From NCBI GenBank assembly GCA_025544715.1, contig GCA_025544715.1_4109.2: a stretch of 64,000 nt of DNA; one strand, 5' to 3'. Below are positions 3,276 through 36,142 of this stretch, piece after piece; position 1 is the stretch's first letter, and each line of letters opens with the position of its first letter. A program made the translations under genes and the position numbers. The DNA comes from Escherichia coli (lineage in GTDB: Bacteria > Pseudomonadota > Gammaproteobacteria > Enterobacterales > Enterobacteriaceae). The notes under the pieces were generated by a model. That model was not told where the DNA came from and searched no databases. It was given only the letters and a program-made list of their open reading frames with translations.

Positions 3276-3454
3276 ACATGTAAGAAGTTAAAATGTCAAC
3301 TTCTAAATTACAGCATCCAAGAGGAATAAAAAGATACTGTTAGAGGGTAACGAATATAATGAATTTGAGGGTAATATCATTATACGTAAAAAGTGATAGC
3401 TTCTATACATAAGGAGGAATCAGTACTGACTAGAAGCTATCGGGTTAAACGATT

Positions 3455-3739
3455 TCAGTACTGAGTGTTTAGTTTAGGATGAGTATTTCCATCTTCGATT
3501 TGTTTTAGAATCGAGTCACGAATTTCTACTGCCCCTTGATAACTATATTTATCTTTTGGGATCACCCATGTATATTCACCATCAGTGGTTTTAAAATCAA
3601 TACATGGATTATCCCTGTATTCAGATGCAATGATTGAAATAACATGTAATGAATTCAATGAATGATTTGTATAAGGATAATTGTTATTGTCTCTGAACGT
3701 GAATGTTTTTAGTTCATCAGGTGCAACAATGAATTCCAT
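3455..3739 (-). CDS. hypothetical protein
   Basis: 94-aa ORF. Confidence 0.45.
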   Translation of the reverse strand: MEFIVAPDELKTFTFRDNNNYPYTNHSLNSLHVISIIASEYRDNPCIDFKTTDGEYTWVIPKDKYSYQGAVEIRDSILKQIEDGNTHPKLNTQY

Positions 3740-3930
3740 TATTCATCCTCGTACTTCTTGAATGGTGGAACATCTACCTTGAAGTCTTTGCACATCTTAG
3801 TTGTACGAACTTCAGTATTGTTGTGATAATTTTTCTTAAATTCATAAGAAACATAATTACGAATACCAGGTGTATGAATAATAGCAAGAACCAATGTACG
3901 ACCAAACAAGCATAATAAATTCCAGAACAT
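3739..3930 (-). CDS. hypothetical small protein
   Basis: 63-aa ORF, 1-nt overlap with neighbour. Confidence 0.35.
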   Translation of the reverse strand: MFWNLLCLFGRTLVLAIIHTPGIRNYVSYEFKKNYHNNTEVRTTKMCKDFKVDVPPFKKYEDE

Positions 3931-3939
3931 ATGAATCTC

Positions 3940-4305
3940 CTAATTGTGGGTTTTAACTAAACGTGAGACAGCTAGTATAGCATTAACCTCATCCAATGTC
4001 AACCCACCAATGTCATTAATCATTGAGTACTGAAATAGTGATTCTTCAGTGTAATGGTAATCATGAGAAGCAATAAAGATTGCTGGTTTAGATGCATCCA
4101 AAATTATCTTTGTCATTGTACTATATATATCAAATTGATACAATAGATTTTCACTTGTATATGCTATGTAGATATTATTTGAATAGGCTGGATGTACCAT
4201 TGTAAAACCATCATAACATAATATTTTTATGTTCGGATCGTCAAAATTGCCTGTATAAAGGTTATTACAAACATCTTGCATTATACGTACTATTAGACTA
4301 GTCAT
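3940..4305 (-). CDS. EE-FQ-S C-terminal-module family protein
   Basis: C-terminus TEESLFQYSMINDIGGLTLDEVNAILAVSRLV. Confidence 0.5.
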   Translation of the reverse strand: MTSLIVRIMQDVCNNLYTGNFDDPNIKILCYDGFTMVHPAYSNNIYIAYTSENLLYQFDIYSTMTKIILDASKPAIFIASHDYHYTEESLFQYSMINDIGGLTLDEVNAILAVSRLVKTHN

Positions 4306-4729
4306 TTAATGGATTTAGTACCTCTTCTGGAATCAACTTTTGAACTTTAAGTATAGCTTTAATGTCATCAAATGTCAATCCACGTAGGTCGTTTAGGAGG
4401 CAGTACTGGAAGAATTTTTCTTCAGTATTTATATCGTCAATATTCATTTGGATTGATTCGTTATCATCATCATAATCATAATCTTCATTATCACAATAAT
4501 AACTTCTGAATATAACTCGTTCAAAATACACATCAAATGAATAAAAATGATTATCGATTTCATATCCAAGAAAAATATTAAAACATGTATTTAAATCTGT
4601 TGTTTCATTTAAATTTGTGTCAAAACAAAAAACTCGCACTTCACCAATATCATCTATATATTCATCTTTGAGTGACCATGTGTTGTTTTTTAATACATAG
4701 TTCACAAGTTCAACGATGTTGTATTTCAT
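4298..4729 (-). CDS. EE-FQ-S C-terminal-module family protein
   Basis: C-terminus TEEKFFQYCLLNDLRGLTFDDIKAILKVQKLI. Confidence 0.5.
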   Translation of the reverse strand: MKYNIVELVNYVLKNNTWSLKDEYIDDIGEVRVFCFDTNLNETTDLNTCFNIFLGYEIDNHFYSFDVYFERVIFRSYYCDNEDYDYDDDNESIQMNIDDINTEEKFFQYCLLNDLRGLTFDDIKAILKVQKLIPEEVLNPLND

Positions 4730-4741
4730 AGTGTACCTTTA

Positions 4742-4791
<50 letters not shown>

Positions 4792-4848
4792 TAATTGAGA
4801 AGTAAGATAACCAACAAGTCTCCATACTCTTTCGCATTGAGGGGAGGC

Positions 4849-4930
<82 letters not shown>

Positions 4931-4934
4931 AGCA

Positions 4935-4981
<47 letters not shown>

Positions 4982-5024
4982 ATTGGCCTCTTTATGTTAA
5001 AAACCCCAGTTTTCTTCTTGAACC

Positions 5025-5122
<98 letters not shown>

Positions 5123-5141
5123 GCATACTCGAAGTACCTCT

Positions 5142-5290
<149 letters not shown>

Positions 5291-5291
5291 G

Positions 5292-5765
<474 letters not shown>

Positions 5766-5777
5766 TTAAATACTCTC

Positions 5778-6457
<680 letters not shown>

Positions 6458-6463
6458 AACTTA

Positions 6464-7003
6464 TTAACGTTCATCATCATGAATCTCACGATGACAATTA
6501 GCACAAACCATAATACATTTATCTAGTTCTATTTTGATTTTTTCAAAAGAACGAGTTGAACCTTCTTGACTAATTGAAAAATCTTTCTGTGAAGGGTCAA
6601 TATGGTGAAATTCTAATGCCGCAATGCATTTATTATAACCACACTTTTCGCAGCAACCACCTTTGTATTCAACAGCTAATATTTTTAATTTTCTACGTCT
6701 ATCCGAAACACGTTGACTGTCACATTTTGAGCATTTCCATTTACCTTGTGAATTTAAATCATAATTCTTATTGTGTATTTCACAAAATCTCATTTCATTC
6801 GTTGACTTTGGTCGTTTAACACCATGTGATTCAATAATGTTATTGATTCTTGATCTATTACACTTATATTCTTTGGCTAAACCGTAAATTGGCATACCAT
6901 TTAAATACTTCTGAATTATTTCATTCTCTGGTAATTTAGAACTTTTCGCCTTTATTGCTTCGGCTATTTTGTTGCGTGTTTCTTCTGATTGTTTTCGTCC
7001 CAT
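6464..7003 (-). mobile_element. HNH homing endonuclease
   Basis: N-terminal EETRNKIAEAIK (NUMOD3-like), helix-turn-helix-like segment, Cys pairs, C-terminal EFHHID...CANCHREIH HNH motif; sits next to a tRNA cluster. Confidence 0.7.
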
Positions 7004-7069
7004 GAACCTTAGACCTCATAATATCCATTATGATATTATTTATTGTTCCAAGGTTCATAGTTAATTTGC

Positions 7070-7152
7070 TGGTAGTACTGGAGTCGAACCAGTCTTGTCA
7101 TTTCTGACACGGATTAACAGTCCGTTGCATAAGGCCGATATGCTAACTACCA
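7070..7152 (-). tRNA. type II tRNA (long variable arm), anticodon read as GTT
   Basis: 7-bp acceptor TGGTAGT/ACTACCA, D-stem GCAT/ATGC, anticodon stem ACGGA/TCCGT with loop CTGTTAA, variable hairpin GTCAGAAATGAC, T-arm ACTGG-TTCGACT-CCAGT; tRNA-Tyr-like body with an Asn anticodon. Confidence 0.55.
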
Positions 7153-7164
7153 TTTGTTTTAAAT

Positions 7165-7244
<80 letters not shown>

Positions 7245-7247
7245 GTA

Positions 7248-7741
<494 letters not shown>

Positions 7742-8103
7742 ATCACCAACTTTAATTAAAAAAATGGATGGTGACGCGTTTAAACGCCGCTGTTAATTCA
7801 GCTTTATAACCACCCGTTTTAACTTACCTTTCGGCTACCTTGACGTGGGGCGTACAGGCTACTAAAAGCAACTTCTGTAAACATATTTCCACGCCTTACC
7901 ATTTTAAATAAAAGTCCATCCGGTTTTCCAGTTTGGTGAAGGACTGTCACCTCTAGTTTCAACCTGCTAGTCAAGTAATAATTGCCTATCGTCCAATTAT
8001 CAAACCCGTCTAGGTTAACATTCACCACTTCCTAGAGTACCAGAGATCTTGTTCTGGATAGCATCGACGTAACTTACACCATATACGTCTGATTGTGGAA
8101 TTC

Positions 8104-8128
8104 ATTATATCAGTACTGAACTATTTAG

Positions 8129-8132
<4 letters not shown>
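8104..8132 (-). promoter_or_regulatory. early-type sigma70 promoter (TTGACT-17-TATAAT)
   Basis: Same architecture and spacer as 7345-7373 (TTGACTaaatagttcagtactgaTATAAT). Confidence 0.6.
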
Positions 8133-8541
<409 letters not shown>

Positions 8542-8554
8542 GCTTTTTTTTTAA

Positions 8555-8715
<161 letters not shown>

Positions 8716-8719
<4 letters not shown>

Positions 8720-8876
8720 ATTCGTACCAGTAGTTCAATTAAGTACATTTCATATGCTGGATCGTTGATAAGTTTATCATACAGATGTGGCTCTGAAATG
8801 AATTCCCAATGATACTCTAACCACTTACCAAAACCTGCATATCTAAAATTAATGTCATTCATCCATTCTTCATGTG

Positions 8877-8880
<4 letters not shown>
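8716..8880 (-). CDS. MTHEEW-family small protein (54 aa)
   Basis: Hand-translated MTHEEWMNDINFRYAGFGKW...; ATGA stop/start overlap on both sides. Confidence 0.55.
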
Positions 8881-9140
<260 letters not shown>

Positions 9141-9145
9141 TATTT

Positions 9146-9273
<128 letters not shown>

Positions 9274-9277
9274 TTAT

Positions 9278-9496
9278 TTATGCAAGTGCTTTAGATACAC
9301 CGACACCAATAATTCCAGTGATAGCGATATGGATATTGACAAGTTGATTACTATCATATGGGTTTGTTTCTGTAATAACCAATGTTGTATCATTGACTAA
9401 AACCACAGTGCCTTTTACACGATACCCATGTAGTAGTACTTGAACCTCATCTTCAGGTTTTAATGATTGAATAACTTCAAATAAAGTTGTTTCCAT
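9278..9496 (-). CDS. hypothetical small protein
   Basis: 72-aa ORF. Confidence 0.4.
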   Translation of the reverse strand: METTLFEVIQSLKPEDEVQVLLHGYRVKGTVVLVNDTTLVITETNPYDSNQLVNIHIAITGIIGVGVSKALA

Positions 9497-9512
9497 TTTT
9501 TATATTCCTTGT

Positions 9513-9695
9513 TTAGTTTTGATTATTTGATTTTCTAAATGCCAGTTCGCATATAAACCAAGGTTTTCTGGTATCCAAAACATATGACCTGAAAAGATTT
9601 TCATCTCTTAAGATATCATAATGTACCTGACGAATGCCATTTCCAAAGCAATCATGTTCTTTATGCTGTTTGGACATCCATTCTTCGTGTGTCAT
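9513..9695 (-). CDS. MTHEEW-family small protein (60 aa)
   Basis: Track ORF 9513-9713 contains MTHEEWMSKQHKEHDCFGNGIRQVHYD; start moved to the conserved MTHEEW ATG at 9695. Confidence 0.5.
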   Translation of the reverse strand: MTHEEWMSKQHKEHDCFGNGIRQVHYDILRDENLFRSYVLDTRKPWFICELAFRKSNNQN

Positions 9696-9696
9696 T

Positions 9697-10032
<336 letters not shown>

Positions 10033-10037
10033 TCTTA

Positions 10038-10214
10038 CTATTTTTTGTCTCTAATTGCAAGCTCATAGATGAACCAGTGGTTGCTATCCCCATCCAATAC
10101 AAATGATTTGAAAAGTTGTTTATCTTTTAACACATCATAATGACCTTGGCGTATACCAAAACCAAAAGGATTATGTTTGAATTTTAGTTCATCTAACCAT
10201 TCTTCATGTGTCAT
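10038..10214 (-). CDS. MTHEEW-family small protein (~58 aa)
   Basis: Hand-translated MTHEEWLDELKFKHNPFGFGIRQGHYDVLKD...; same conserved 5' nucleotide block. Confidence 0.45.
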   Translation of the reverse strand: MTHEEWLDELKFKHNPFGFGIRQGHYDVLKDKQLFKSFVLDGDSNHWFIYELAIRDKK

Positions 10215-10444
10215 CTCTTAATATCCATAACGGCTATACTAAAATATGTACTAAAATCATCACAGTGAATGATATTGTTATAGTACGATTCGGGATCATT
10301 TAACAATAAAAACAACTCCAACTTAAAAAAGTATACATCACCTGCATTTATATTGTAATGCATTTGATACCACTCGTCAAATGTTTTAGGCTGCACTGTA
10401 TTTACCTTTATAAAAATCCATAATTTTAGATAACAGTACTGCAA
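10211..10444 (-). CDS. possible degenerate MTHEEW-like paralogue
   Basis: Track ORF contains KTFDEWYQMHYNINAGD resembling MTHEEWMNDINFRYAGFG; track start is TTG and it overlaps the neighbour's 3' end, so it may be a decayed copy. Confidence 0.3.
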   Translation of the reverse strand: MQYCYLKLWIFIKVNTVQPKTFDEWYQMHYNINAGDVYFFKLELFLLLNDPESYYNNIIHCDDFSTYFSIAVMDIKR

Positions 10445-10790
10445 TAGTATAATCTAAATCTGGATAAAGTAAATTGTACTGAAATTCTTCCTCTACACTG
10501 TAGTTAGTGGTGCAGTACTGGTAGTCTTTATAACCTATTGAAAAATAATTCGGATACAATGTACAACGAAAACGATATGCTTCATCTGTCATATAATCAT
10601 TGTATTCAACACAGAAGTATAGTGATTTGGCATTTAATTCAATAAGCTCAACGAAACCATCTGGTAATGAATGGTTATAAATGACTGAATCTTCATTAAA
10701 CCATTCATAGTATTTTTCCAAAAAATCACTAATGGACACATCCAGACTTTGTATAGGTGGAGTTATGATAATTTGAACTTCGTTATTCAT
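10386..10790 (-). CDS. EE-FQ-S C-terminal-module family protein
   Basis: C-terminal region YSVEEEFQYNLLYPDLDYTIAVLL. Confidence 0.45.
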   Translation of the reverse strand: MNNEVQIIITPPIQSLDVSISDFLEKYYEWFNEDSVIYNHSLPDGFVELIELNAKSLYFCVEYNDYMTDEAYRFRCTLYPNYFSIGYKDYQYCTTNYSVEEEFQYNLLYPDLDYTIAVLLSKIMDFYKGKYSAA

Positions 10791-11335
10791 TTCGACCCCT
10801 TACTATATTTCACGTATGGGCTATCATACAGATCATAACTTTTTTGTGCACGTTCTTTTCGGCGTTCATACATGATTCTATCATACTCTTTAGCTTTCTG
10901 ATTTGCTTCATTATACAATTTTAAAATTAGCAAAAATGCATCAAGATCGGGATAGTTTGCTGGATTGATAGTACTCAGCATAAATCGTTCTTCTTCAGTT
11001 CTAGCTAAGTCAAATTCATACTTAATAGTTTTATACCCACTCCATTTATATATATGCGTTACTTTATTAGTAAGTACATTATATTCAACGAAGTCAGTAC
11101 TACCATCAAGTACACGAGTAATCTTAATAGATGTACCAATGACAATCTGTACAGAACTCATTTCTGAAGTTTTAAAGTAATAAATGTTATTACGGCGAAG
11201 ATTAACTTCTCGATCTCCAATGCGAACATGCTTAATAACTTCCATTAATGGTTCTGGTACACCACGAATTGGCATGTTAATGCTCCTTTTTAATTCTATA
11301 CATTTTAACAGCACTGGTTTCCCAAAAGTCACCAT
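10787..11335 (-). CDS. EE-FQ-S module family protein with C-terminal extension
   Basis: ARTEEERFMLSTINPANYPDLDAFLLILKLY followed by ~45 more residues. Confidence 0.45.
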   Translation of the reverse strand: MVTFGKPVLLKCIELKRSINMPIRGVPEPLMEVIKHVRIGDREVNLRRNNIYYFKTSEMSSVQIVIGTSIKITRVLDGSTDFVEYNVLTNKVTHIYKWSGYKTIKYEFDLARTEEERFMLSTINPANYPDLDAFLLILKLYNEANQKAKEYDRIMYERRKERAQKSYDLYDSPYVKYSKGSK

Positions 11336-11513
11336 CTAAGTTGCTGAATTTATATATAGTTTCGAGATTTTCACCATCAAACGAAAACAACACAACATCT
11401 TCTTGTACAGTGCCGTTATGTAACATGATATCATAAACTTCATTTCTTACAAATAATTCTTTGGCCTTAGAAATATCAAAATCAATAAATTTCATATATC
11501 CTCCTATTATCAT
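11277..11513 (-). CDS. hypothetical small protein
   Basis: 78-aa ORF. Confidence 0.35.
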   Translation of the reverse strand: MIIGGYMKFIDFDISKAKELFVRNEVYDIMLHNGTVQEDVVLFSFDGENLETIYKFSNLDGDFWETSAVKMYRIKKEH

Positions 11514-11543
11514 TATTTGTATTATATCAGAGTTTCATTGCAC

Positions 11544-11936
11544 TTACCAGCATGTTTTCATAACTTCTGTGATGTAAATCATTTTATCTTTTAGTGTGTA
11601 AGGGATGCAAATTTCACTAGGGCTTAACGTTGTGTTCTTTTGAAACTCATCTTCTTCGGAATCAGCCAGGTAAAATGGGTGCGTCACAAAGTTATCATCA
11701 ACAGGACGATTATGTGGTTTCATTAATGCATCATGATTTACAAAATAATATGCATCAATATCAGGACGGAAATATAAACAATCAACCTTTAAGCACGGGT
11801 GTAACCATAAGGACAAAGAATATGTTATTTGGTTACCAATTTGTCTTGGGCCTGATGCAATTGTATTGATGTTATTTTTATCTTGTACCATTTCATAAAT
11901 GAAATCTATCATTTCGTGTAGTTCTGATTCAGTCAT
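11544..11936 (-). CDS. EE-FQ-S C-terminal-module family protein (divergent)
   Basis: C-terminal region ADSEEDEFQKNTTLSPSEI. Confidence 0.45.
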   Translation of the reverse strand: MTESELHEMIDFIYEMVQDKNNINTIASGPRQIGNQITYSLSLWLHPCLKVDCLYFRPDIDAYYFVNHDALMKPHNRPVDDNFVTHPFYLADSEEDEFQKNTTLSPSEICIPYTLKDKMIYITEVMKTCW

Positions 11937-11946
11937 TTTATTTCCT

Positions 11947-11976
11947 TAAAAAAATACCCAGTACTTGACTGGGTAT
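11947..11976 (-). terminator. rho-independent terminator
   Basis: Perfect 9-bp stem ATACCCAGT/ACTGGGTAT, 5-nt loop, followed on the minus strand by a 7-nt U-run. Confidence 0.6.
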
Positions 11977-11990
11977 TTACAAAGTAACGT

Positions 11991-12140
11991 TTAATCAGAT
12001 TTCTTTTCGTAATCTGTAAAAACAGTCAGGATTGTTGCACATAGTGAATCAACTACTGATGCACGTGTGTTATCAAGGTCTTTAGCTAGTGCTTGAATCT
12101 CTTGAAGTTTTACTACTAAGTCGATTTTTTGATTACTCAT
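11991..12140 (-). CDS. hypothetical small protein (49 aa)
   Basis: Translated codon by codon: MSNQKIDLVVKLQEIQALAKDLDNTRASVVDSLCATILTVFTDYEKKSD; AGGAG RBS 5 nt upstream; not in the track. Confidence 0.45.
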   Translation of the reverse strand: MSNQKIDLVVKLQEIQALAKDLDNTRASVVDSLCATILTVFTDYEKKSD

Positions 12141-12162
12141 TACTTCTCCTATTGGATGTTTT

Positions 12163-12959: not shown

Positions 12960-13024
12960 TTATAAATCCTCTTACTTTATATGATTAAAATGCCCCATCA
13001 AAAATGATGAGGCGGTAAGATAAA

Positions 13025-26308: not shown

Positions 26309-26311
26309 AAA

Positions 26312-26893: not shown

Positions 26894-27464
26894 ATACCTT
26901 TTTAAAATTCATAATTTCAAGAATACTGTATTCTTTATCACCAATCAAATCTTCAGTGAATGCTGTGGGGTCGGAATCGCTATACAACTTACCATTGATG
27001 ATAACACAACCATTACTAAGATACAATGCACTCATGATCTGTTGTCCTTCTTTCACATTTTGTGATGGACTTGGATTTGTAGTAACAAATCCATTAGATA
27101 CTACAAATCCATTTCCTGCTAATGATGATGTTAGTTCTGACCATTCTACTGATATTAAGTCACGATAGTCCTTAGATACTTTTATATTCACAATACAAGC
27201 AACTCGTTTAATAGGTGGAGTGCTAATCGTGTACATTTGTGGTGTTTGAACAGCAGTTCCTGAATTTTGAGTCGATTTGGTAATTACTGGTTCTACACTG
27301 GGAACTGTTGTTCTTAGTGATATAATACGTCCAGTTTCATCCAATTTAAGGACTAAACGATGAGTTTCATCCTCAGAGTAATAGGGAAACAATCCACCTG
27401 AATTCATATTTTGAAGCATTTTAATTAATTCATAAGTATTTTTTAAAAACATAGTACACCCCAT
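26877..27464 (-). CDS. hypothetical protein
   Basis: 195-aa ORF. Confidence 0.5.
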   Translation of the reverse strand: MGCTMFLKNTYELIKMLQNMNSGGLFPYYSEDETHRLVLKLDETGRIISLRTTVPSVEPVITKSTQNSGTAVQTPQMYTISTPPIKRVACIVNIKVSKDYRDLISVEWSELTSSLAGNGFVVSNGFVTTNPSPSQNVKEGQQIMSALYLSNGCVIINGKLYSDSDPTAFTEDLIGDKEYSILEIMNFKKVYENHD

Positions 27465-27499
27465 AGAAAAGGGGAGTACAAAGTACTCCCAACATTTAA

Positions 27500-28054
27500 T
27501 TATAGTTTAATTGATTCTTGAATACCAGTATCCATTGCTTTCTTGGTACGTGTATCAGATACTACTGTACAAAGGTGTTCAATATTTTCACTTGGAAACG
27601 TATTCGAATCAAGAATTTTGGAATTCCAGAAGCCTTTGCGGAACTTAGCATAATCAGTACACTGGTCAATTTTCATTTTCTGAAGATTGTTGAACTTTGT
27701 ACGTCCTGTTTCAATTGTCACCATCAATTCCTGATAAATTTTAGGATCAAGATTTGGAACCTGTTGTTGAATCTGTGACATTACAAACTTCTGGTCAACA
27801 CCTTCACGCCCTTTAAAGTATGATTCAATCGTTTCTTTCAACGCATCTTTATACTTATCGGCTACTTGAACCTTATCTTGAATAGTAAGAGTATAATTGC
27901 TAAGTTGACTTTCTGATGCATCATAATACTTTTTAATGTTTCCTTCAAACTCAACTGCACGATCATGTGCACCAACATACATACTAATAGAACCAAACAC
28001 CATTAGTACGATAACTACCAAAATACCAATTAACGCAAGGAGTTTACCATTCAT
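27500..28054 (-). CDS. hypothetical membrane-anchored protein
   Basis: 184 aa with N-terminal TM helix (LLALIGILVVIVLMVF). Confidence 0.5.
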   Translation of the reverse strand: MNGKLLALIGILVVIVLMVFGSISMYVGAHDRAVEFEGNIKKYYDASESQLSNYTLTIQDKVQVADKYKDALKETIESYFKGREGVDQKFVMSQIQQQVPNLDPKIYQELMVTIETGRTKFNNLQKMKIDQCTDYAKFRKGFWNSKILDSNTFPSENIEHLCTVVSDTRTKKAMDTGIQESIKL

Positions 28055-29145
28055 AAATCGTTATCCCTCATATAAAGGCCAATAAAAATAGACAGAATCA
28101 ACAACACAATGGAAGCACCGATAAGAACATCTTTTCTAGGTTCCATTTTAACTGACAAGTACTCAAACTCTTTATTAGAGAGTCTCTCAAAATGTTTGTC
28201 AATATTATGTACTTCTTTAACTAGTAAGTCAAGAGTTAATTTTTCATTTAATGCATCAATACGCATCTTTGCATGTAACTCTTCATTCTTCATTCCTTGT
28301 GCAAATGATGTACTGTAAAATTTGACAACGTTACCATCATTGTCAATACCAAAGAACATAATAACATCATTCTTCTTACCACCACGCCACGATGCAAGGG
28401 TAGCATCAACAAAATCAACATCTTTGTAATCATAAACTAGTACTTGGATGTTTACCTGCTTACGTGCACCCATCGTTTTTAGCTCATTACGAAGGTATTC
28501 ATCGTAACCATCAACGTTGTAATTTGTAGTGTTAATTACGTGATGTGTTTTGTAATAATCAACTACACTTGGGTATTCTGGAATAGTACTAAGATACTTT
28601 TCATCATACATGTTGTGTAGTTCTTCAGGACTAAACAATGAGTTCTTATCAGCAAATAGATAGTTGATATATGAACTCTCTGCTGCGGCATAGTCACCAA
28701 TAATAACTTGCTGCCAACGTGGTGGTGTCATTGTACCTTGACGGTTCACACGTTCAATCTCAAACTCACCTACTGTACTTTTCACATACCAATCAACTTC
28801 ATATGAGTAATCAAAAACCTTATATGATTCACACTCACGATGTGATTTACCTTTACTATCATATCGCGTATGGCACTTCTCATGCCATGTATAGTGCTTA
28901 CATGAACTAGATTGTGTGCAATATTCTTTGTGGCTGTATTTTGAAGTTACTTGACCATTCAGAATCTCAACATCATAAAGCTGGCTATAGTTGATTGCGT
29001 ATGAAATACCAAGAACAAGAGCCGCACCAACTAGACAACAACCAATATGAATCAATAGTTCTTTAGTACTGATATGCTTATCGTACATGTATTTCATAAC
29101 GAATACAACGATAAGAGCAGGTATTAACAGAATAATGAAATTCAT
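28051..29145 (-). CDS. hypothetical membrane protein (N- and C-terminal TM, Cys-rich segment)
   Basis: 364 aa; TM helices at both ends; Cys/His-rich stretch CTQSSSCKHYTWHEKCH. Confidence 0.55.
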   Translation of the reverse strand: MNFIILLIPALIVVFVMKYMYDKHISTKELLIHIGCCLVGAALVLGISYAINYSQLYDVEILNGQVTSKYSHKEYCTQSSSCKHYTWHEKCHTRYDSKGKSHRECESYKVFDYSYEVDWYVKSTVGEFEIERVNRQGTMTPPRWQQVIIGDYAAAESSYINYLFADKNSLFSPEELHNMYDEKYLSTIPEYPSVVDYYKTHHVINTTNYNVDGYDEYLRNELKTMGARKQVNIQVLVYDYKDVDFVDATLASWRGGKKNDVIMFFGIDNDGNVVKFYSTSFAQGMKNEELHAKMRIDALNEKLTLDLLVKEVHNIDKHFERLSNKEFEYLSVKMEPRKDVLIGASIVLLILSIFIGLYMRDNDL

Positions 29146-29148
29146 GTA

Positions 29149-29910
29149 TTAATCCATTTTAAGCTTGTTTAGACAGAATGAAATCTGGATTGCTTCACGT
29201 GCTGCATCAAACAGTGGGTGATGTAACTCCAACCCATTAATCCCACACGTATTTGCATATGTGATAAATTTATCCAACTGTACCGAAACGATTTCATCCA
29301 TTTCAATACGAGCTTCTTCATTCAATAAACGTTTCAATGTGCGTGCATTTTCAGGTGCATCATACTTCCACAACTCACCAGCGTTCATTAGTTTTAAATG
29401 GTTTGCTTGTAAAATACTACAATCGAAGTTACATCCGTTGCCCCAGACTGAATGAGGAACTTCTTCACCATAATCATTGTAACGTAATTCTTTCCAGAAA
29501 TCAACAATACTACTGTATGCAAAAAATCGTCGTGATTGACCATTCGGTCCATACAGTTCAGGTGCTTTGAGTTTCATAGTACTGGAAACTTCACTATATG
29601 CATTAGGATATTCTTTCTGGCAGGTATTCATCCAAAAATCCATTGCACCTGCGTCTGATTTTAAACCAGCAGCAACTTGATCCTGGTATGGTAATTTAAT
29701 ATATAAGAACTGACGAATGTCATTTTCAGGTTTACTTGGAACTACTACTGCTGCGTAATTTGGGATAATAATATCATAACCTGAAAGTTCAGGTGTTCCA
29801 AGAGCTTCAATATCAACACTAATATGACGACGTTTCATAAGTTCGTTCCTTATCTGTACATTAAAAAGAGTGCGTTTCAATAATATTATTATATTAAAAA
29901 ACGCACTCAT
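29149..29910 (-). CDS. dexA: DexA-like 3'-5' exonuclease (DEDD family)
   Basis: ISVDIEALGT (Exo I D-x-E), WGNGCNFDCSIL and HHPLFDAAREA match the T4 DexA motifs as recalled; true start is probably the internal Met near 29838. Confidence 0.55.
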   Translation of the reverse strand: MSAFFNIIILLKRTLFNVQIRNELMKRRHISVDIEALGTPELSGYDIIIPNYAAVVVPSKPENDIRQFLYIKLPYQDQVAAGLKSDAGAMDFWMNTCQKEYPNAYSEVSSTMKLKAPELYGPNGQSRRFFAYSSIVDFWKELRYNDYGEEVPHSVWGNGCNFDCSILQANHLKLMNAGELWKYDAPENARTLKRLLNEEARIEMDEIVSVQLDKFITYANTCGINGLELHHPLFDAAREAIQISFCLNKLKMD

Positions 29911-29920
29911 ATGTCAACTA

Positions 29921-31057
29921 TTACTTGTTAGCTTTTTCGGCAATTTCACGAAGAGTGTCTTCCAGTTCATAGGAAAGTTGTGCAATTTCCTGTTTAGCAC
30001 GTTCACGTTCCAATTTACCTTTTTTCTCTTCCTCAATAACTGCTTCAATACTGTCAATCATCGTTTTATGTACATTACGCAAGGTTTTAATATCCACAAT
30101 ACCACGGTTGTTTGCCTTTGCTGCATCCAACATATTTGCTGCAACCATTTTAGAGTTAGTTTCCAAAAGACGGTTTGTCTCGTTGTCAATAAGATTACCC
30201 AGTTCATTATCCTTACGTTGACGCTCGGAAATCAACTGTTCAGCCAATTGAGACTTCCATGCTGGAATAACAACGGATTTTAAATCTTCAAACTTAGAAA
30301 CAGTGTTCAAGTTTACTTTTTTCATACTCATCAAGCGTGGACCACTTAGTTCGCACATCATGATAAGACGACGAATCTTATCTTCTTGTTTAGAAAGTGC
30401 TTCACAAATCATCTTTTGCTCTTGAATAGCAAAAGAGTCTACATTTTTGTCTGCTTGCATTTCTACTAGTAATGCATCTTGTGTTTTAGTTACTTCTTCT
30501 AAACCAACTAATGTATCACGTAATTCAAACAAATATTCTTTGTTTTCATTATATGCTTTATCAAGCCATTCACATTCTCCGTGCTGGCGATTAATACCAG
30601 TTTGAAGAGTTTTCATAATTTCATCAATTTGCTCTTTACTGTTTTTGTACTGATCACCGACTTTCTGTTGAGCATTAACAAAGAATTTCTTAATACGACC
30701 AACAATTGATTTATCTTCTTGAAGACTGTCAATATCAACTGCACGAGTCAACGTAAGAATTGTGGTGATTGATTTACCAAACTCGGTATTGTCATCTGTT
30801 ACATTAACTTTAGACATAATTTCATCAGCCAGACGCCCAACAGCAGCACCAGCAGTTGTACCAACAGTATTGATGTTTTGAACTGTTAGAGACATAGTAT
30901 TTCCCTTAACATCTTTCAGTACTGGTAGTGATTTTGTAGTTTGGTTAAAAATATCACTTGCATCAATTGTATGACCTTTAGTCGCAGTTTTAGTAGTACG
31001 TTTTGCTGATTTAGCTGCGGTGGATGCTTTTTTAGGATTGATTTCTTTCTCGGACAT
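29921..31057 (-). CDS. hypothetical protein, Lys/Thr-rich N-terminus, helical
   Basis: 378 aa; first gene downstream of the promoter at 31106-31134. Confidence 0.55.
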   Translation of the reverse strand: MSEKEINPKKASTAAKSAKRTTKTATKGHTIDASDIFNQTTKSLPVLKDVKGNTMSLTVQNINTVGTTAGAAVGRLADEIMSKVNVTDDNTEFGKSITTILTLTRAVDIDSLQEDKSIVGRIKKFFVNAQQKVGDQYKNSKEQIDEIMKTLQTGINRQHGECEWLDKAYNENKEYLFELRDTLVGLEEVTKTQDALLVEMQADKNVDSFAIQEQKMICEALSKQEDKIRRLIMMCELSGPRLMSMKKVNLNTVSKFEDLKSVVIPAWKSQLAEQLISERQRKDNELGNLIDNETNRLLETNSKMVAANMLDAAKANNRGIVDIKTLRNVHKTMIDSIEAVIEEEKKGKLERERAKQEIAQLSYELEDTLREIAEKANK

Positions 31058-31105
31058 TTAGTATTCCTCGTTTAATTTAATATGATGTGCTGCTCTGTGA
31101 TAAAC

Positions 31106-31134
31106 ATTATACGGGCAGCACGTATGATAGTCAA
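31106..31134 (-). promoter_or_regulatory. early-type sigma70 promoter (TTGACT-17-TATAAT)
   Basis: Minus-strand TTGACT at 31134-31129, 17-nt spacer, TATAAT at 31111-31106. Confidence 0.55.
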
Positions 31135-31145
31135 GTATTTTTTTT

Positions 31146-32273
31146 TTACTCTTTGTTACCATATGCCAGATTACGAATAATCTCTACAGTACTCTCATCT
31201 ACGGCTTTACCTGTCTGTGATTGTAAACGATTGATAATCAAAGGAATAGTAATAGTTTGAATATCTACCATACGATTCATATCAACTTGATATTGCTTAC
31301 TTGTTGCAATAATGCTCGTTTCAGTCATGGATGTGGTGATTCCCATTTTCATAATACGTTCTAATGTTAATTCATATTCAAACGCATCATCCACACAACG
31401 TAGTGCGTATTCACATCCCAACTTCCCATATTCAAGTTCATTTTTGATTTCATGAACTTCGTTTCTAAGTTCTGAAAACATCGTACTAAGACCACTAAAC
31501 TTATTAGTATCATACTTAACTGCTTCATTTAGTGCTTTCATCACTTTTGGCAAATCTGATGGTTGCACTTTGATATCGGTTTTACCAAACAATTTCTGCG
31601 TAAAGGTCGGCTTCAATGGGAACAACGTTTCCAACGCAACAGTAAGGTTATTCATAAGCATTCTAATATAATCACTATGCTGTTGTAATGCTGAGTTAAG
31701 ATCCAATTGACGTTCTGAAATTTGTTGAATCTTAGTTCCAATTTCTTGTGCACAAACTGGTAAGTTTACAAACCAGTCTAGTACTTTTACTGAATTCTTT
31801 TCAATAGTACTAGGGAATTCAACCCATCTTTCAATGTCATCAATTCTGCTATCGTCTGGGTTGATAGGTTTTTTCTTAAGAACAATAGGTGCAGGTACAT
31901 CTGGTGATGTTTGTACCAAGTCTAAACGTGGTTTAGCACGACCTTCTTTCCATTCACGATATTCACGCTCTAATGGCGGTACTGGCATGTTAGGATCAAT
32001 TCTAATATTACTAAAATGAATTTTATCCTTCATTAAATCAAGAACTTTCAGACGTTTATTATCAAAATAGATTTCATCCAATGACAGAGTTTTTACATCA
32101 AATAACGGATTACCCAATGAGTCATAGGTGCGGCGAACAATTACATTATAAATGTATTTTTTGTTTGATGAACGGTCATATTGTTTCAATAAAGAGTTCA
32201 GTACATAATTATAGTTAAATTCTTGAATCTCAACTTCTTTGCCATTTTCAATGAAAAAATATTTACCTTTCAT
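31146..32273 (-). CDS. hypothetical protein
   Basis: 375-aa ORF. Confidence 0.55.
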   Translation of the reverse strand: MKGKYFFIENGKEVEIQEFNYNYVLNSLLKQYDRSSNKKYIYNVIVRRTYDSLGNPLFDVKTLSLDEIYFDNKRLKVLDLMKDKIHFSNIRIDPNMPVPPLEREYREWKEGRAKPRLDLVQTSPDVPAPIVLKKKPINPDDSRIDDIERWVEFPSTIEKNSVKVLDWFVNLPVCAQEIGTKIQQISERQLDLNSALQQHSDYIRMLMNNLTVALETLFPLKPTFTQKLFGKTDIKVQPSDLPKVMKALNEAVKYDTNKFSGLSTMFSELRNEVHEIKNELEYGKLGCEYALRCVDDAFEYELTLERIMKMGITTSMTETSIIATSKQYQVDMNRMVDIQTITIPLIINRLQSQTGKAVDESTVEIIRNLAYGNKE

Positions 32274-32350
32274 TATAAAACCTCATAATCAATTAAAATT
32301 TACGCGATGGTGATATTGTACATACTTCGACTACACATGTCAACACCTGA

Positions 32351-32382
32351 AAAGAAAAAAGGACGCACCTTAGTGCATCCTT
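32351..32382 (-). terminator. rho-independent terminator
   Basis: Stem AAGGATGCAC/GTGCGTCCTT (one G-U), 5-nt loop, then TTTTTTCTTTTC on the minus strand; overlaps the stop of the upstream gene. Confidence 0.5.
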
Positions 32383-33188
32383 TTGTTACTTTTATCCTTG
32401 TACCATACAAATGTCTTGACAGGTGGATATTTTTCATTCTTTGGTGGTTCAGGCATGTCGTATACAGTTGCATTTCTAAACTTAAGAATGTATGTGTCCA
32501 TCAAACGGATTATACAATAGTTTAAACATTTTTGTGCTCTTTCTTTCCAAAAATGTTTATATGGTTCTGGACAACCAAGATAATCAAGTTTATACATACT
32601 CATTGCAACTTGCATAAATCTTTGGGCCGAGAATTTACGCTTGTCGATTTTACTTGCCCTATGTTGATCACAGGTCCAGCTTGATACTCCAGGTAAATGA
32701 CAAAACAAATCAAAACTAACCATACTATCAAAGTATTTGTTATGACCATGTAACTCACCATAAAATACTGCTTCAGATACTGTATCATATAATGAGAAAT
32801 TTGAATGTATATGCTCATTATCAAAAATACTTTTTAAATCTTTATAAGTTTCTGGAACTGGTGGTTCAGGTAATACTTCACCAAATACTTCAACACACCA
32901 TATCTTCCATAAACCTTTTGTAAATTTATTTTCTAAATCTCTATCACTATCTATATAAAAAGTTTTTTCATTTATGAAAACTTTTCTTGCCATGTATGCT
33001 TTAAAAATTGCATCTGGATCAATGTCTTCACGATTTACATCATCCCAGCCTTTACCAATTCTTGAAATTTCAAATCTACGCATATACATGCGACATGCTA
33101 AATCTTTAGTAAGGCTGCGACGATACTTTTCATCCTGATGTAATTTGGTTGTTTCATGAAGAGATTTAAGCATATTTAAAATTCTCAT
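32370..33188 (-). CDS. hypothetical protein
   Basis: 272-aa ORF. Confidence 0.55.
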   Translation of the reverse strand: MRILNMLKSLHETTKLHQDEKYRRSLTKDLACRMYMRRFEISRIGKGWDDVNREDIDPDAIFKAYMARKVFINEKTFYIDSDRDLENKFTKGLWKIWCVEVFGEVLPEPPVPETYKDLKSIFDNEHIHSNFSLYDTVSEAVFYGELHGHNKYFDSMVSFDLFCHLPGVSSWTCDQHRASKIDKRKFSAQRFMQVAMSMYKLDYLGCPEPYKHFWKERAQKCLNYCIIRLMDTYILKFRNATVYDMPEPPKNEKYPPVKTFVWYKDKSNKRMH

Positions 33189-33865
33189 CGCAACACCAAA
33201 TACTTCCCGTTTCTTCCAATTACATATTGATCACCACTTCGTAGTACTGTATAGCTTTCCCCTAGTATGGAACTAAGACGCGAAGTGTCTAATTGTGTAT
33301 CATTCTTTAATAACTTTTTCACATATGTTTCTGAAACAAAACCGCTTCCAGTACTGTAGTGTAATTTACCATATGCTGTTTTTAATGTCAACATGTTTCC
33401 TTCTTTGATTACTGAAACACCAGCATAATCAAGGAACTCACTAATTGAACTAGGAATGCCCAAATCAATTCTCTGCTGTATTTCTTCAAAATCAACATCG
33501 ATTGGGTCATTAACACCATATAGTTGTATTTTCCAACCTGGGTCTGGACAAATATTTTCAATAGTTTTAATTAAACGTAAAAGTTTTTCAGGGAATTCGG
33601 CATTTCGTTCCATTTCCACATAAACTTGATATCGACCATCTAAATTTGGTGTTTCTGCTGCTTCTGTATCAACTACATCAATAGGTGATTTTTCAATAAA
33701 AGAAGATAAATCATATGCTGCATCAAAATTGTTAAGAACCTGAAACATAATAACAATATTACTATCTTCAATTTTAGGAGTATATTCATCAACACTAATT
33801 ATAGGATGAATCAAATCTTTGAGAACTTGCGGACGTAAGCCTTGTTCATTTAATTTCTTTTTCAT
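33185..33865 (-). CDS. hypothetical protein
   Basis: 226-aa ORF. Confidence 0.5.
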   Translation of the reverse strand: MKKKLNEQGLRPQVLKDLIHPIISVDEYTPKIEDSNIVIMFQVLNNFDAAYDLSSFIEKSPIDVVDTEAAETPNLDGRYQVYVEMERNAEFPEKLLRLIKTIENICPDPGWKIQLYGVNDPIDVDFEEIQQRIDLGIPSSISEFLDYAGVSVIKEGNMLTLKTAYGKLHYSTGSGFVSETYVKKLLKNDTQLDTSRLSSILGESYTVLRSGDQYVIGRNGKYLVLR

Positions 33866-34428
33866 TACATTCCACCTTCTTGTGTCTCATCCGTTACTTC
33901 CACATCCAAATCTACATCATCACCAGTTACAGGTTCTTCAAAATTTTCTGGTGAATTCATTGGATTACTATTGAATTCTGCTGCCATTAGTTTATATTCA
34001 TCAAAACTTTCTGGATTAATTAAGTTTCGTGGAATCTGCACTCTAACCAATAGTACTGGGATTCTTTCATTTTTTGGTATACGTACCGACCCTGATTGTG
34101 TAGCAACACTTTTCATATCAGCTTGTCGATTAGGATCTTTGATAGGAGTTATTTCATAATCAGCTTTAACATACACTTTAGTACCATGCTTCTCCAAAAT
34201 AGAGAATGCTGTAGGATCAGGGAAATTTTCACGATAGTATTTGAATGTTACAGTACACCAATACTTACTTACAATTGGTCCCTCTACCAACTCACCCTCA
34301 ATAATTCCTTTATACGCATACAAATCATTATCATCGAAATATTTTTCTACAGCAAGAAGTATATCTAACATACCACTGTTATCATACAACTGCTGAATAG
34401 CATTATCTGTATAATCTAAATCGTCCAT
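33865..34428 (-). CDS. hypothetical acidic protein
   Basis: 187-aa ORF with acidic C-terminus. Confidence 0.5.
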   Translation of the reverse strand: MDDLDYTDNAIQQLYDNSGMLDILLAVEKYFDDNDLYAYKGIIEGELVEGPIVSKYWCTVTFKYYRENFPDPTAFSILEKHGTKVYVKADYEITPIKDPNRQADMKSVATQSGSVRIPKNERIPVLLVRVQIPRNLINPESFDEYKLMAAEFNSNPMNSPENFEEPVTGDDVDLDVEVTDETQEGGM

Positions 34429-34526
34429 ATTTTATATTATCCTTAAAAACTAGCACATATAATACTATTTACTACTTTTAAAAAACAACAAAAGGGGTTT
34501 GAATCAAACCCCCCAATTTAAAAGTT

Positions 34527-35171
34527 TTATTTGTAATATTTACCTAGTACTGAATAAATTTTCAATCTAAGATCTGTCCAATTCTCAATGTATTCAAAAT
34601 TACCAGTGTTCTTATACATTGAATTATGAGAACATCCCATCATAACTGACGGAATACCAAGTCCCATTGCAGTTTCAATATTATTGATATAATCATCAAT
34701 CATAAGTTTTACATCATATCTAGACTGTAAATCCTCTAGTGCTTGTTTCTTTGATTCGTTCATTTCGATAATAATAATCTCATCAAAACAGTTTTCACCA
34801 AATTCACGCATTAGGTTTACATTACGTAAAACTTCTCCATAACCTTTTTTGCCACATTTTGTTAGTACTACAAATTTTTCTTTATGAAAACGATCACGTA
34901 GCTCTTGTACAATATCAACTGTATTAGGTTCGACTGGTTTTAACAACCCAAACAAATATGATTGTTGGTTGAATTGTTCAAGAATTTTTTTAACTTCTTG
35001 TTGGGGGACACCCAACCAATCGGATAAATCATATTCTAATGGGTATGGTGTTGATGGTGTGATATTATAAGTTTGTTTTACGAACTCAGAAAGCATACCC
35101 ATATGGTCCAATAGAACTTCATCACAATCAAAAACTATACAACGTGGTTTCATTACATGTTCCCCGAACAA
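34527..35171 (-). CDS. HAD-superfamily hydrolase, putative 5'-nucleotidase
   Basis: N-terminal FDCDEVLLD (DxDx[TV] motif I) and later MIDDY aspartate motif. Confidence 0.55.
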   Translation of the reverse strand: MFGEHVMKPRCIVFDCDEVLLDHMGMLSEFVKQTYNITPSTPYPLEYDLSDWLGVPQQEVKKILEQFNQQSYLFGLLKPVEPNTVDIVQELRDRFHKEKFVVLTKCGKKGYGEVLRNVNLMREFGENCFDEIIIIEMNESKKQALEDLQSRYDVKLMIDDYINNIETAMGLGIPSVMMGCSHNSMYKNTGNFEYIENWTDLRLKIYSVLGKYYK

Positions 35172-36142
35172 ATTAGGTCAATCTCGCACAGAAGTGCACT
35201 GAGATTCATTTCACGGTCAGATACAGTTGCTTGTTTTACAACAGCATCACGAATCTTAACCTTGATTTTCATAAGAGTAATTTCATCAGTACTGAACATT
35301 TCAGCATTACGATACAGATAAGAAAAGAATGCATCCATCTCATCATCAGGGATATTTTGTACAATTTGTTCACGCATTTGGCGAATGTTTCCTGCCTTTA
35401 ATGCTTCAACAATTGCAGTACGATACCCTGCTGAATTTTCAATACTATCTTCAAGTTTTACTAGCTTACCATCAACAACTGAACTTTGCAATACGTTTAG
35501 TGTTTTACGGAAATCAGGATAGGAAGCATTGATATACTTTTGAACTTGTTCAACACTATCATCACTACTCAAATCAACACCTTCTGCTAGAAGAATATTA
35601 TAAATTCGAGTCATGAATTGTTCCATATCATGCTTTTCAATTGTAATAACTTGAACACGAGAAATGATAGGTTTTTGAATTTTATGTGGTTCGTTACTTG
35701 TTAAAATAAAGCGAGCGTTTTCATGGTAGTCTTCCATTACACGTTTCAAACTACCTTGTGCTTTATGGTTCATCTGCTCCATTTCTTCAAGAACAAAGAT
35801 ACGATACCTACCAAAACATGATAACTTTGCTGCGGCATCGATTTTATCACGAACTGCATCAATACCCTCATCTGACATGTTAAGTGTAGTTACATCACTT
35901 GGGTCAAGGTGTCCATTCTGTACCAATCCATTAATGAGAACTTTGATCGCAGATGTTTTACCAGTTCCTGCTGGGCCAAAAAACCCAATATGTGGAATGT
36001 CACCAGTTTTAATCCATTCTTCCATTTTCTGGCGTAGTGCATCATTTTTTGATACATAATCTTCCATTGATTGTGGGCGATATTTTTCAGTCCATAGTGT
36101 GGTCATTTTTATTTCCTTATGTGTACGTGTTATAGAATCCAA
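35153..36142 (-). CDS. 44: sliding-clamp loader large subunit (T4 gp44 / RFC-like AAA+ ATPase)
   Basis: RFC box WTEKYRP, Walker A GPAGTGKTS, overall collinear with T4 gp44 as recalled. Confidence 0.85.
   Translation of the reverse strand: MDSITRTHKEIKMTTLWTEKYRPQSMEDYVSKNDALRQKMEEWIKTGDIPHIGFFGPAGTGKTSAIKVLINGLVQNGHLDPSDVTTLNMSDEGIDAVRDKIDAAAKLSCFGRYRIFVLEEMEQMNHKAQGSLKRVMEDYHENARFILTSNEPHKIQKPIISRVQVITIEKHDMEQFMTRIYNILLAEGVDLSSDDSVEQVQKYINASYPDFRKTLNVLQSSVVDGKLVKLEDSIENSAGYRTAIVEALKAGNIRQMREQIVQNIPDDEMDAFFSYLYRNAEMFSTDEITLMKIKVKIRDAVVKQATVSDREMNLSALLCEIDLICSGNM

Follow-up and report, generated by a model that had tools for sequence, protein, structure and literature searches.

AGTACT, a hyper-abundant and conserved palindrome of Asteriusvirus jumbo phages: a candidate array of docking sites on whole phage genomes

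Results

A jumbo phage window and its repeated palindrome

The window analysed here is a stretch of 64,000 nucleotides (contig GCA_025544715.1_4109.2, from an assembly recorded as Escherichia coli), and its subject is a short palindrome, AGTACT, that recurs along the whole of it. We found that the window belongs to an Asteriusvirus jumbo coliphage, with 98.2% identity to 121Q across 24 kb in reverse orientation and ~96% identity to PBECO4 and its relatives. The GC content is 33%, and nearly every open reading frame (ORF), as taken from crude ORF picks, lies on the minus strand. The gene content includes six transfer RNAs (tRNAs), replication and nucleotide-metabolism genes, a T4-type topoisomerase II, TelA, NrdAB and a C5 cytosine methylase; an Rfam scan of the window returned the tRNAs and nothing else. 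Genome-wide counts were made on 350 kb of ECO103 4-12-1 (ECO103), an unannotated record that is 96% identical to the window. The other relatives were mostly sampled as 25–50-kb segments, and the host was sampled as 50 kb of E. coli K-12.

The first-pass annotation of the window had singled out a ten-base palindrome, TCAGTACTGA, listing nine exact copies and estimating that ~0.1 would be expected by chance. All nine listed positions were exact, and two further copies, at 58862 and 60965, had been overlooked. Dinucleotide-preserving shuffles gave an expectation of 0.12 and a maximum of 2, in line with the earlier estimate, and none of 100 shuffles reached the 11 copies seen. When one mismatch was allowed, 29 matches were found in the window against 2.7 expected. 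ECO103 contains 48 copies and conserves all 11 of those in the window, and genome-wide the enrichment over a dinucleotide-preserving null was overwhelming. A shorter nine-base form, TCAGTACTG, was confirmed at 19009, 19067 and 20284; the fourth reported copy begins at 41046, not at ~41041, and extra copies were found at 30916 and 54018. Once its own 9-mers and 8-mer are taken into account, the 10-mer is not in excess: their counts already predict 7.85 copies in the window.

Abundance and spacing of the AGTACT core

The over-represented unit was found to be the hexamer at the centre of the 10-mer. AGTACT occurs 116 times in the window against 16.3 ± 4.1 in dinucleotide shuffles, and the 8-mer CAGTACTG 26 times against ~0.6; at the two ends of the scale are GTAC, with 359 copies, and the 12-mer TTCAGTACTGAA, with 3. 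Among the 6-bp palindromes of the window AGTACT is by far the most enriched, and several GC-rich ones have no copy. A general enrichment of palindromes was rejected, since AGTACT alone stands out. Eight 6-bp palindromes (CGATCG, CCGCGG, CCCGGG, CCATGG, CAGCTG, AGGCCT, AGCGCT and ACCGGT) are absent from the window, and in the genome of a relative GATC reaches 0.55 of its expected count and CpG 0.74, which is ordinary restriction-site avoidance beside the AGTACT excess. The flanks of the hexamer are reverse-complement symmetric, with information falling outward (C at −1 in 47–51% and G at +1 in 44–46% of sites), and the lineage consensus of the site is ATTCAGTACTGAAT.

The same picture was obtained from the larger sample. 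In ECO103 we counted 918 AGTACT sites against 119 expected and 204 copies of CAGTACTG, the top 8-mer, against 3.4; over the first 280 kb AGTACT ranks first of all hexamers. Over 280 kb of this genome the coefficient of variation (CV) of AGTACT spacing was 0.868, the lowest of 125 frequent hexamers, where the null gave 0.999 ± 0.039 and the median of the others was 1.09. Spacing was likewise under-dispersed in the window (CV 0.79 vs 0.98, p = 0.0045) and in Serratia phage BF (also 0.79), and the largest gap between sites was ~2 kb. A site is met every 380–550 bp in the phage (~2–2.6 per kb), whereas the K-12 sample has one in ~17 kb (0.06 per kb). An analysis of helical phasing and of paired sites revealed no clear periodicity, only a slight excess at 18–21 bp.

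Most of the sites in the window, 104 of 116, lie within ORFs. Codon usage or a preference for the Ser-Thr dipeptide might therefore be thought to create them: 56 of the 104 coding sites read AGT-ACT (Ser-Thr), and all five coding 10-mers, each in a minus-strand ORF and always in the frame xTC-AGT-ACT-GAx, encode [F/I]-S-T-[D/E]. Shuffling refuted this account, to which we give next to no chance of being correct. Synonymous-codon shuffles predicted 29 ± 4.8 coding sites and codon-order shuffles 21. With synonymous shuffling the excess was ~3.5-fold in each frame (56/14/34 observed against 15.5/3.4/10.2 expected), and CAGTACTG was present 21 times in ORFs against 1.5 when proteins and codon usage were held. 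Furthermore, AGT-ACT writes 56 of the 114 Ser-Thr dipeptides, where codon usage predicts ~14%, and the density of AGTACT in 4.7 kb of non-coding sequence is at least that of the ORFs. The persistence of the excess in all three frames after synonymous shuffling indicates that the hexamer acts on DNA. Selection on the DNA itself holds the core ~5–8-fold above composition, in every frame and in non-coding DNA.

Conservation and phylogenetic spread

Retention of the sites was examined in codon-aligned orthologues, using control hexamers of the same composition and Fisher tests. AGTACT sites were retained 2–2.8 times as often as the controls: 69% against 37% in TH47 (p = 3e-8), 35% against 13% in RaK2 (p = 6e-5) and 26% against 11% in BF (p = 6e-3). 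Selection keeps the sites spaced more evenly than other frequent hexamers, and individual sites are retained across genera. Turnover was also seen: in 47 kb aligned with OR844650.1 and MT446416.1, the window lineage lost 11 sites that both of these keep and ECO103 lost 3, and recent gains amounted to 2 per lineage.

The excess was present in every RaK2-like lineage sampled. We counted 105 sites against 16 expected in RaK2 (Alcyoneusvirus), 118 against 17 in Serratia phage BF (Eneladusvirus), 129 against 16.5 in XbC2 (Mimasvirus), 60 against 8.2 in EJP2 and 53 against 8.3 in Salmonella phage SE_PL; AGTACT is the top hexamer in each bar RaK2, where it ranks fifth. Pseudomonas phage PA5oct has 1 site against 10 expected, and phi92, an unrelated coliphage, has 0 against 8.9. 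Avoidance of AGTACT by K-12 was considered and rejected, since the 3 sites in 50 kb are few against the base-composition expectation of 11.6 but normal against the dinucleotide null of 4.5.

We then found the array in a second lineage. IMG/VR was scanned for the 14-mer, and the scan returned RaK2-like contigs together with a family of 16–35-kb contigs (GC 0.41–0.43) with a 13–19-fold AGTACT excess. In this family CAGTACTG is again the top 8-mer (40 against 0.5 in a 20-kb stretch), and the flanks are C...G as in the jumbo phage. Its members, lambda-like siphoviruses, encode a gpA terminase, a portal of the lambda type, a fusion of protease and capsid, and a lambda tail tube, and the hosts of these AGTACT-rich prophages are Leclercia, Enterobacter, Phytobacter and an Escherichia species. 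A 32.7-kb composite of the prophage contains 144 sites against 10 expected, with each of the three frames enriched 4–5-fold, and at an Enterobacter locus the sites stop at the junction with host DNA. A related element from Atlantibacter is neutral (2 sites against 2.5 expected). Comparison of the prophage ORFs with the jumbo genome by blastp, tblastx and phmmer revealed a lysozyme and otherwise noise-level matches only, at the sensitivity of blastp and phmmer and for one jumbo genome and ~33 kb of prophage.

Some further features of this poorly characterised prophage family of the Enterobacteriaceae were recorded. Its GC of ~0.42 stands in hosts of ~0.55 (IMG/VR loci L064, L066, L078, L149, L162 and others, and genome loci L140–L145), and ~10 kb of the left arm gave no significant Pfam match. 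A 465-aa protein (L140, 1679–3076), itself with no significant Pfam match, is the sole left-arm gene common to the three AGTACT-rich members compared. As a candidate reader of the motif it was set aside; the contrast in gene content between rich and poor members argues for it only weakly, because the upstream genes all differ.

Early promoters and AGTACT-free blocks

Site density in ECO103 is ~3 times higher in the 25-kb early region of small ORFs, and outside that region the AGTACT excess is still ~6-fold. That early region (OR844650.1, 300–326 kb) contains ~29 promoter cassettes with AGTACT against the −35 and/or CAGTACTG against the −10, and the window promoter at 7345–7378 is laid out like them. 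It had been noted at first pass that two 10-mers form promoter spacers, and we could verify both: TTGACT-17-TATAAT with an upstream TG is found on the minus strand at 7373–7345 and at 8132–8104, each with 11 of 12 matches. In both, the 10-mer supplies the last 10 nt of the spacer and with them the TG of the extended −10; in the first (10-mer at 7351–7360) a second AGTACT (7373–7378), 20 bp off, abuts the −35. Such a fixed place between a good −35 and −10 holds for 2 of the 11 10-mer copies and for the Asteriusvirus early cassettes, and is untrue of the other nine copies.

Two side observations concern the early region. In the ~29 early cassettes (locus L009, 1–26000) a GC-rich hairpin of the GGGGAGAA...TTCTCCCC type, with no T-run, follows just after the −10; it is a 5′ stem-loop on every early transcript and no terminator. 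At the edge of the region (L009, 21337–21488) there are about nine direct repeats with an 8-bp period, resembling CGTCTAGC.

These cassettes bear on the suggestion, made at first pass, that the copies arose by duplication of a promoter cassette. The suggestion holds for the two copies at 7351 and 8110, which share an identical 29-bp cassette (7345–7373 and 8104–8132), and the ~29 related cassettes of the relative carry the motif beside the −10 and/or −35. As a general account, the spread of one promoter cassette or small repeat was refuted and is very improbable: the flanks are unrelated at nine of the 11 10-mers and at essentially all 116 AGTACT sites, 104 of those sites are intra-ORF, and the ~6-fold excess persists beyond the early region. 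Homologous flanks of the kind expected for a dispersed repeat resembling repetitive extragenic palindromes (REP) or miniature inverted-repeat transposable elements (MITE) were seen for the 7345–7373 / 8104–8132 pair and for no other copies. The genome-wide enrichment, which cassette duplication does not explain, speaks for a real feature. A role as recombination or homing target, also raised at first pass, gained no support, as we found no link to endonuclease genes or insertion boundaries, and all 11 copies are kept in the 96%-identical relative and some in RaK2. That most copies outside the promoters are intergenic proved marginal; 3420 is intergenic and 5176 and 5297 lie in an ORF-poor stretch, but five copies are inside ORFs and the one at 3455 ends in a stop codon.

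An exception to the array was found directly downstream of the early region, where an 8-kb block of paralogous small genes with an E-E-x-F-Q-x-S-x-V motif has zero AGTACT (OR844650.1, 285378–293664; MT446416.1, ~73–80 kb). The variant AGTACA occurs there 45 times on the coding strand and 0 times on the other, in three frames, and in TH47 (85% identity) 29 of 44 block AGTACA are kept and none is AGTACT. The block is confined to Asteriusviruses (34 records). Within it the full palindrome is selected against while a strand-specific one-off variant is kept. A second paralogous family, of 70–100-aa proteins with an L-G-T-N-Y-Q-E motif, forms a 5-kb AGTACT-free gap at 296–301 kb of OR844650.1; the TGTACTG copies in this family are inherited and not independent, because they lie at one conserved protein position (xVLxGT).

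The strictly coding-strand pattern of the 8-kb block, 45 against 0, is what a messenger RNA signal would give. In such a case AGUACU in phage messages would be bound or cut by a protein or RNase, or would pair with itself, and the palindromic form of the DNA would be a by-product. Transcription covers nearly all sites, and a palindrome yields the same word in the transcript from either coding strand. However, the flanks are reverse-complement symmetric (C at −1 and G at +1, each ~45–57%) in genomes whose genes run nearly one way, non-palindromic variants show no coding-strand excess outside the block, and non-coding and promoter DNA are also enriched. We therefore consider an RNA-level signal a long shot.

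Positions of the sites in the window

The array, the exact 10-mers and the promoters are collected in Table 1. The ORF that contains the copy at 35286 is a clamp-loader homologue by synteny with RaK2 gp44. The two palindromes at 5173–5308 flank a 107-bp ORF-free segment, possibly a small RNA or the scar of an insertion. Nearby, at 4760–4812 on the minus strand, there is a tRNA-like piece, GCCGACTTAGCTCAGTAGGTCACCAGTTCGATTCCGGTAGTCGGCACA, in which acceptor stem, D-arm and T-arm are present and the anticodon arm is missing, and which neither ARAGORN nor Rfam called.

Table 1. AGTACT-based features of the window (10-mer, TCAGTACTGA)
Feature	Coordinates	Strand	Remarks
AGTACT array	1..64000		116 sites; 26 reach CAGTACTG, 11 TCAGTACTGA, 3 TTCAGTACTGAA; mean spacing 550 bp
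Exact 10-mer, intergenic	3420..3429		in 25-nt loop of 11-bp inverted repeat (3395–3405 / 3431–3441); 26 nt downstream of the stop codon of ORF 3455–3739(−)
Exact 10-mer	3455..3464		final three minus-strand bases are the TGA stop of ORF 3455–3739(−) (...T-Q-Y-stop)
16-bp perfect palindrome TATTCAGTACTGAATA	5173..5188		10-mer at 5176–5185; in ORF-poor stretch 4729–5328
14-bp perfect palindrome ATTCAGTACTGAAT	5295..5308		10-mer at 5297–5306; 121 bp from the 5173..5188 palindrome
Sigma-70-type promoter AGTAC|TTGACT-N17-TATAAT	7345..7378	−	upstream of tRNA-Ser/Met/Asn cluster; 11/12 match, TG present
Second copy of 29-bp promoter cassette	8104..8132	−	10-mer at 8110–8119; upstream of ORF 7819–8028(−)
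Exact 10-mer	22325..22334		in ORF 22279–22743(−), F-S-T-E; within 12-mer TTCAGTACTGAA; kept in ECO103 and TH47
Exact 10-mer	23117..23126		in ORF 22837–23388(−), I-S-T-E; kept in ECO103, changed in TH47
Exact 10-mer	35286..35295		in ORF 35153–36142(−), F-S-T-D; kept in ECO103, TH47 and RaK2
Exact 10-mer	58862..58871		in ORF 58378–58959(−), F-S-T-D; kept in ECO103 and RaK2
Exact 10-mer	60965..60974		in ORF 60640–61296(−), I-S-T-E; kept in ECO103

Discussion

We propose that TCAGTACTGA is the most informative form of a graded duplex element with two-fold symmetry and the invariant core AGTACT, and that the element is best read as an array of docking sites for a putative symmetric reader. This reading is tentative, and we would put its probability at roughly 0.4. 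The array would offer dense docking sites to a symmetric, probably dimeric, DNA-binding factor acting on the whole of the phage DNA, and the factor may mark, organise or protect that DNA, or load something onto it, without serving as a gene-specific operator. Of the three ideas in the first-pass annotation, that of a regulator site came closest: the motif is symmetric on the duplex and under selection, and it occupies operator-like spots in two sigma-70 promoters, but ~900 sites per genome, mostly intragenic, do not make a gene-specific operator. Where sites fall inside promoters (the two in the window and the ~29 early cassettes of the relative), occupancy would also gate sigma-70 transcription. 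The putative reader is more likely to come from the host, or from a small portable gene, than to be a lineage-specific jumbo-phage protein, because unrelated prophages share the motif and its C...G flanks while sharing no detected protein beyond lysozyme. That the extended motif recurs in two lineages with no gene in common speaks against jumbo-phage-specific readers such as the phage topoisomerase II.

Several observations weigh against a docking array. We found no helix-turn-helix family across the 98 ORFs of the window, among the best 25 of 31 Pfam families, and ~900 sites per genome copy would need either a very abundant protein or a catalytic reader. AGTACT is absent from the published sigma-70 promoters of phage CBB, so the placement in promoters is specific to the Asteriusvirus cassette. 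C...G flanks are present in Asterius-, Alcyoneus- and Mimasvirus, but those of BF and SE_PL are A/T-rich and asymmetric; variable flanks around a strict hexamer are more like the target of a restriction-modification-type enzyme than that of a transcription factor. The spacing in the prophages is not even (CV 1.04), and XbC2, which is rich in AGTACT, is recorded with a Xanthomonas host. The AGTACT-free block is predicted neither by a simple symmetric reader nor by any other model considered. Finally, the suggestion of a host reader leans on the failure to find a shared gene in a search of limited sensitivity.

The main rival is that AGTACT is the exact target of a restriction-modification-type enzyme (a methyltransferase, a nickase or a Vsr/MutH-like repair endonuclease), its abundance then reflecting either a housekeeping use like that of Dam at GATC or a biased repair turning near-sites into sites, as has been proposed for HIP1. 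ScaI has the specificity AGT^ACT. The invariant part of the element is exactly a 6-bp palindrome, with flanks that differ between genera; a signal for strand discrimination or nicking would need something like the even spacing, with its maximum gap of ~2 kb; and phi92 avoids AGTACT (0 against 8.9) as phages do restriction targets. The cyanobacterial HIP1 provides a precedent, being a hyper-abundant palindrome with no known function (PMC5861425).

The methylases of the phage offered little to an enzyme of this kind. A motif-based screen, which an atypical enzyme could escape, found two methyltransferases, one of CpG-type C5 and one of the Dam family (PF05869), and neither fits as the reader because AGTACT contains neither CpG nor GATC. 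The C5 enzyme (286 aa, 18633–19493 on the minus strand, PF00145) resembles enzymes with short recognition sequences, with DNMT3 catalytic domains as its best solved-structure matches, and in RaK2 the counterpart enzyme is associated with CpG methylation, as detected by bisulfite (PMC3622015); restriction results for RaK2 are mentioned in that paper as 'data not shown'. Moreover, phi92 carries a 51% homologue of it yet has zero AGTACT. The window C5 methylase was therefore rejected as a reader, being CpG-type by the literature and by its structural relatives and having a homologue in a phage that lacks the motif; its gene happens to carry two of the 9-mer copies (19009 and 19067). A drive resembling very-short-patch (VSP) deamination repair was also rejected, as it would deplete the deamination neighbour AGTATT/AATACT, whose ratio of 1.0–1.3 shows no depletion. 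In addition, the prophage replicates by host machinery, yet the host flank has no sites. Weighing both sides, we consider an enzyme target unlikely.

The GTAC centre with its symmetric, decaying flanks is also compatible in form with a gate site for a type IIA topoisomerase, cut as A^GTAC^T (4-nt stagger) by either the T4-type topoisomerase II of the phage (window 40472–43899) or host gyrase or topoisomerase IV. With dense strong sites, a large and heavily transcribed genome would be kept from tangling. The determinants recognised by type IIA enzymes have two-fold symmetry and extend over ~12 bp around the 4-bp stagger (PMC3814380), a catalytic reader makes the number of sites unproblematic, site density peaks in the promoter-rich early region, and the enzyme is encoded by all RaK2-like phages sampled around the locus. 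No topoisomerase-like protein was seen, however, in the ORF list or among the listed Pfam matches of the AGTACT-rich 32.7-kb prophage composite. For E. coli gyrase the motif spans ~130 bp and is degenerate, with no sharp hexamer (PMC6379681), and host gyrase was rejected on this ground; the preferences of pneumococcal topoisomerase IV (T at −1, A at −2) do not match the A and C found here (PMC3814380). We regard a gate site as improbable.

A host factor that would fit two unrelated phage lineages is SlmA, the nucleoid-occlusion factor, which the array might titrate or activate so as to block host division. The SlmA site, GTGAGTACTCAC, shares the AGTACT core, is a palindrome for a dimeric host protein and is scattered on the chromosome (PMC3020112). 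SlmA requires G1, T2, a purine at 3, A4, G5 and a pyrimidine at 6 of its 12-bp palindrome (PMC3020112), and these outer positions are absent in the phage, which has C at position 3; G there is depleted (56 of 918 sites against a 16% background, p = 2e-19). The form GAGTACTC has 4 copies against 204 of CAGTACTG, GTRAGYRCTYAC has 0 in 350 kb, the host chromosome has tens of sites where the phage genome has ~900, and a SlmA homologue was not found in the phage. An involvement of SlmA is thus hardly credible.

Comparison with known systems places the array among several without assigning it to any. The ScaI target is the identical hexanucleotide and is avoided by phi92, but it is the commonest hexamer here and no cognate methylase was found. 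The Dam site GATC of E. coli is a short palindrome, dense and fairly even along the chromosome and present in some promoters, that is read by MutH, SeqA and regulators, and AGTACT resembles it in all of these respects of form and distribution; GATC, however, is not several-fold over-represented, is at 0.55 of expectation in the phage and is defined by a cognate methylase, and AGTACT has no evident methylase of its own. Chi and the uptake sequences (uptake signal sequence, USS; DNA uptake sequence, DUS) are over-represented oligomers by which a given machine recognises DNA as self, and they are asymmetric and orientation-biased. AGTACT, in contrast, is palindromic with symmetric flanks, its variants have no strand bias outside the one 8-kb block, and no cognate helicase-nuclease or uptake machine was linked to it. 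TF1 of SPO1 and p6 of phi29 are abundant phage DNA-binding proteins that cover the genome and repress early promoters. They are a functional analogy to a docking array, although we know of no case in which either reads a sharp 6-bp palindrome, and the existence of the prophage lineage speaks against a reader confined to jumbo phages.

The closest parallel is with HIP1 (GCGATCGC) of cyanobacteria, of which the AGTACT array is, by analogy, a counterpart and not a member. HIP1 too is a short palindrome that is hyper-abundant genome-wide, and it is described as intragenic beyond codon usage, conserved between relatives above background and without an established function (PMC5861425). AGTACT likewise shows a many-fold genome-wide excess, an intragenic excess in all frames and conservation above background. 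It differs in being another word, in a phage and not a cellular genome; in a lower excess of the core (5–14-fold), though CAGTACTG reaches 45–80-fold; in having no overlapping methyltransferase target that we could find; and in occurring in two unrelated phage lineages where HIP1 is inherited within one phylum.

A bolder extension of the docking-array reading, which we put forward with considerable doubt, is that AGTACT arrays are a sequence-encoded identity label of phage DNA in enterobacterial cells. A symmetric reader would tell site-dense phage DNA from host DNA and might thereby steer protection, replication, transcription or the sparing of the DNA by nucleases. The unrelated prophages of low GC would have arrived at the same label by convergence, or would mimic it, and the AGTACT-free, AGTACA-only block would have been left unlabelled on purpose or would be read in another way. 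T4 marks its DNA chemically with hydroxymethylcytosine, and Chi labels host DNA; an AGTACT label would be analogous to these.

Phage genomes are known for their avoidance of short palindromes. Counter to this usual avoidance, a restriction-target palindrome is the top hexamer of a 350-kb AT-rich genome, is selected in at least four genera and recurs in unrelated prophages of the same host family. The motif is not mentioned in the literature that we found on these phages, and we found no report for phages of a hyper-abundant, selected palindrome of the HIP1 kind. The finding implies a cis-acting system on whole phage genomes that this literature does not mention. In practice it bears on ScaI-type sites, on synonymous recoding and on synthetic-genome design for phages that are therapeutic candidates, and it offers a small, experimentally tractable parallel to the long-unsolved problem of HIP1. 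Should a reader exist, it would open a new way to study the separation of phage from host DNA in giant phages that have neither a nucleus-like shell nor modified bases.

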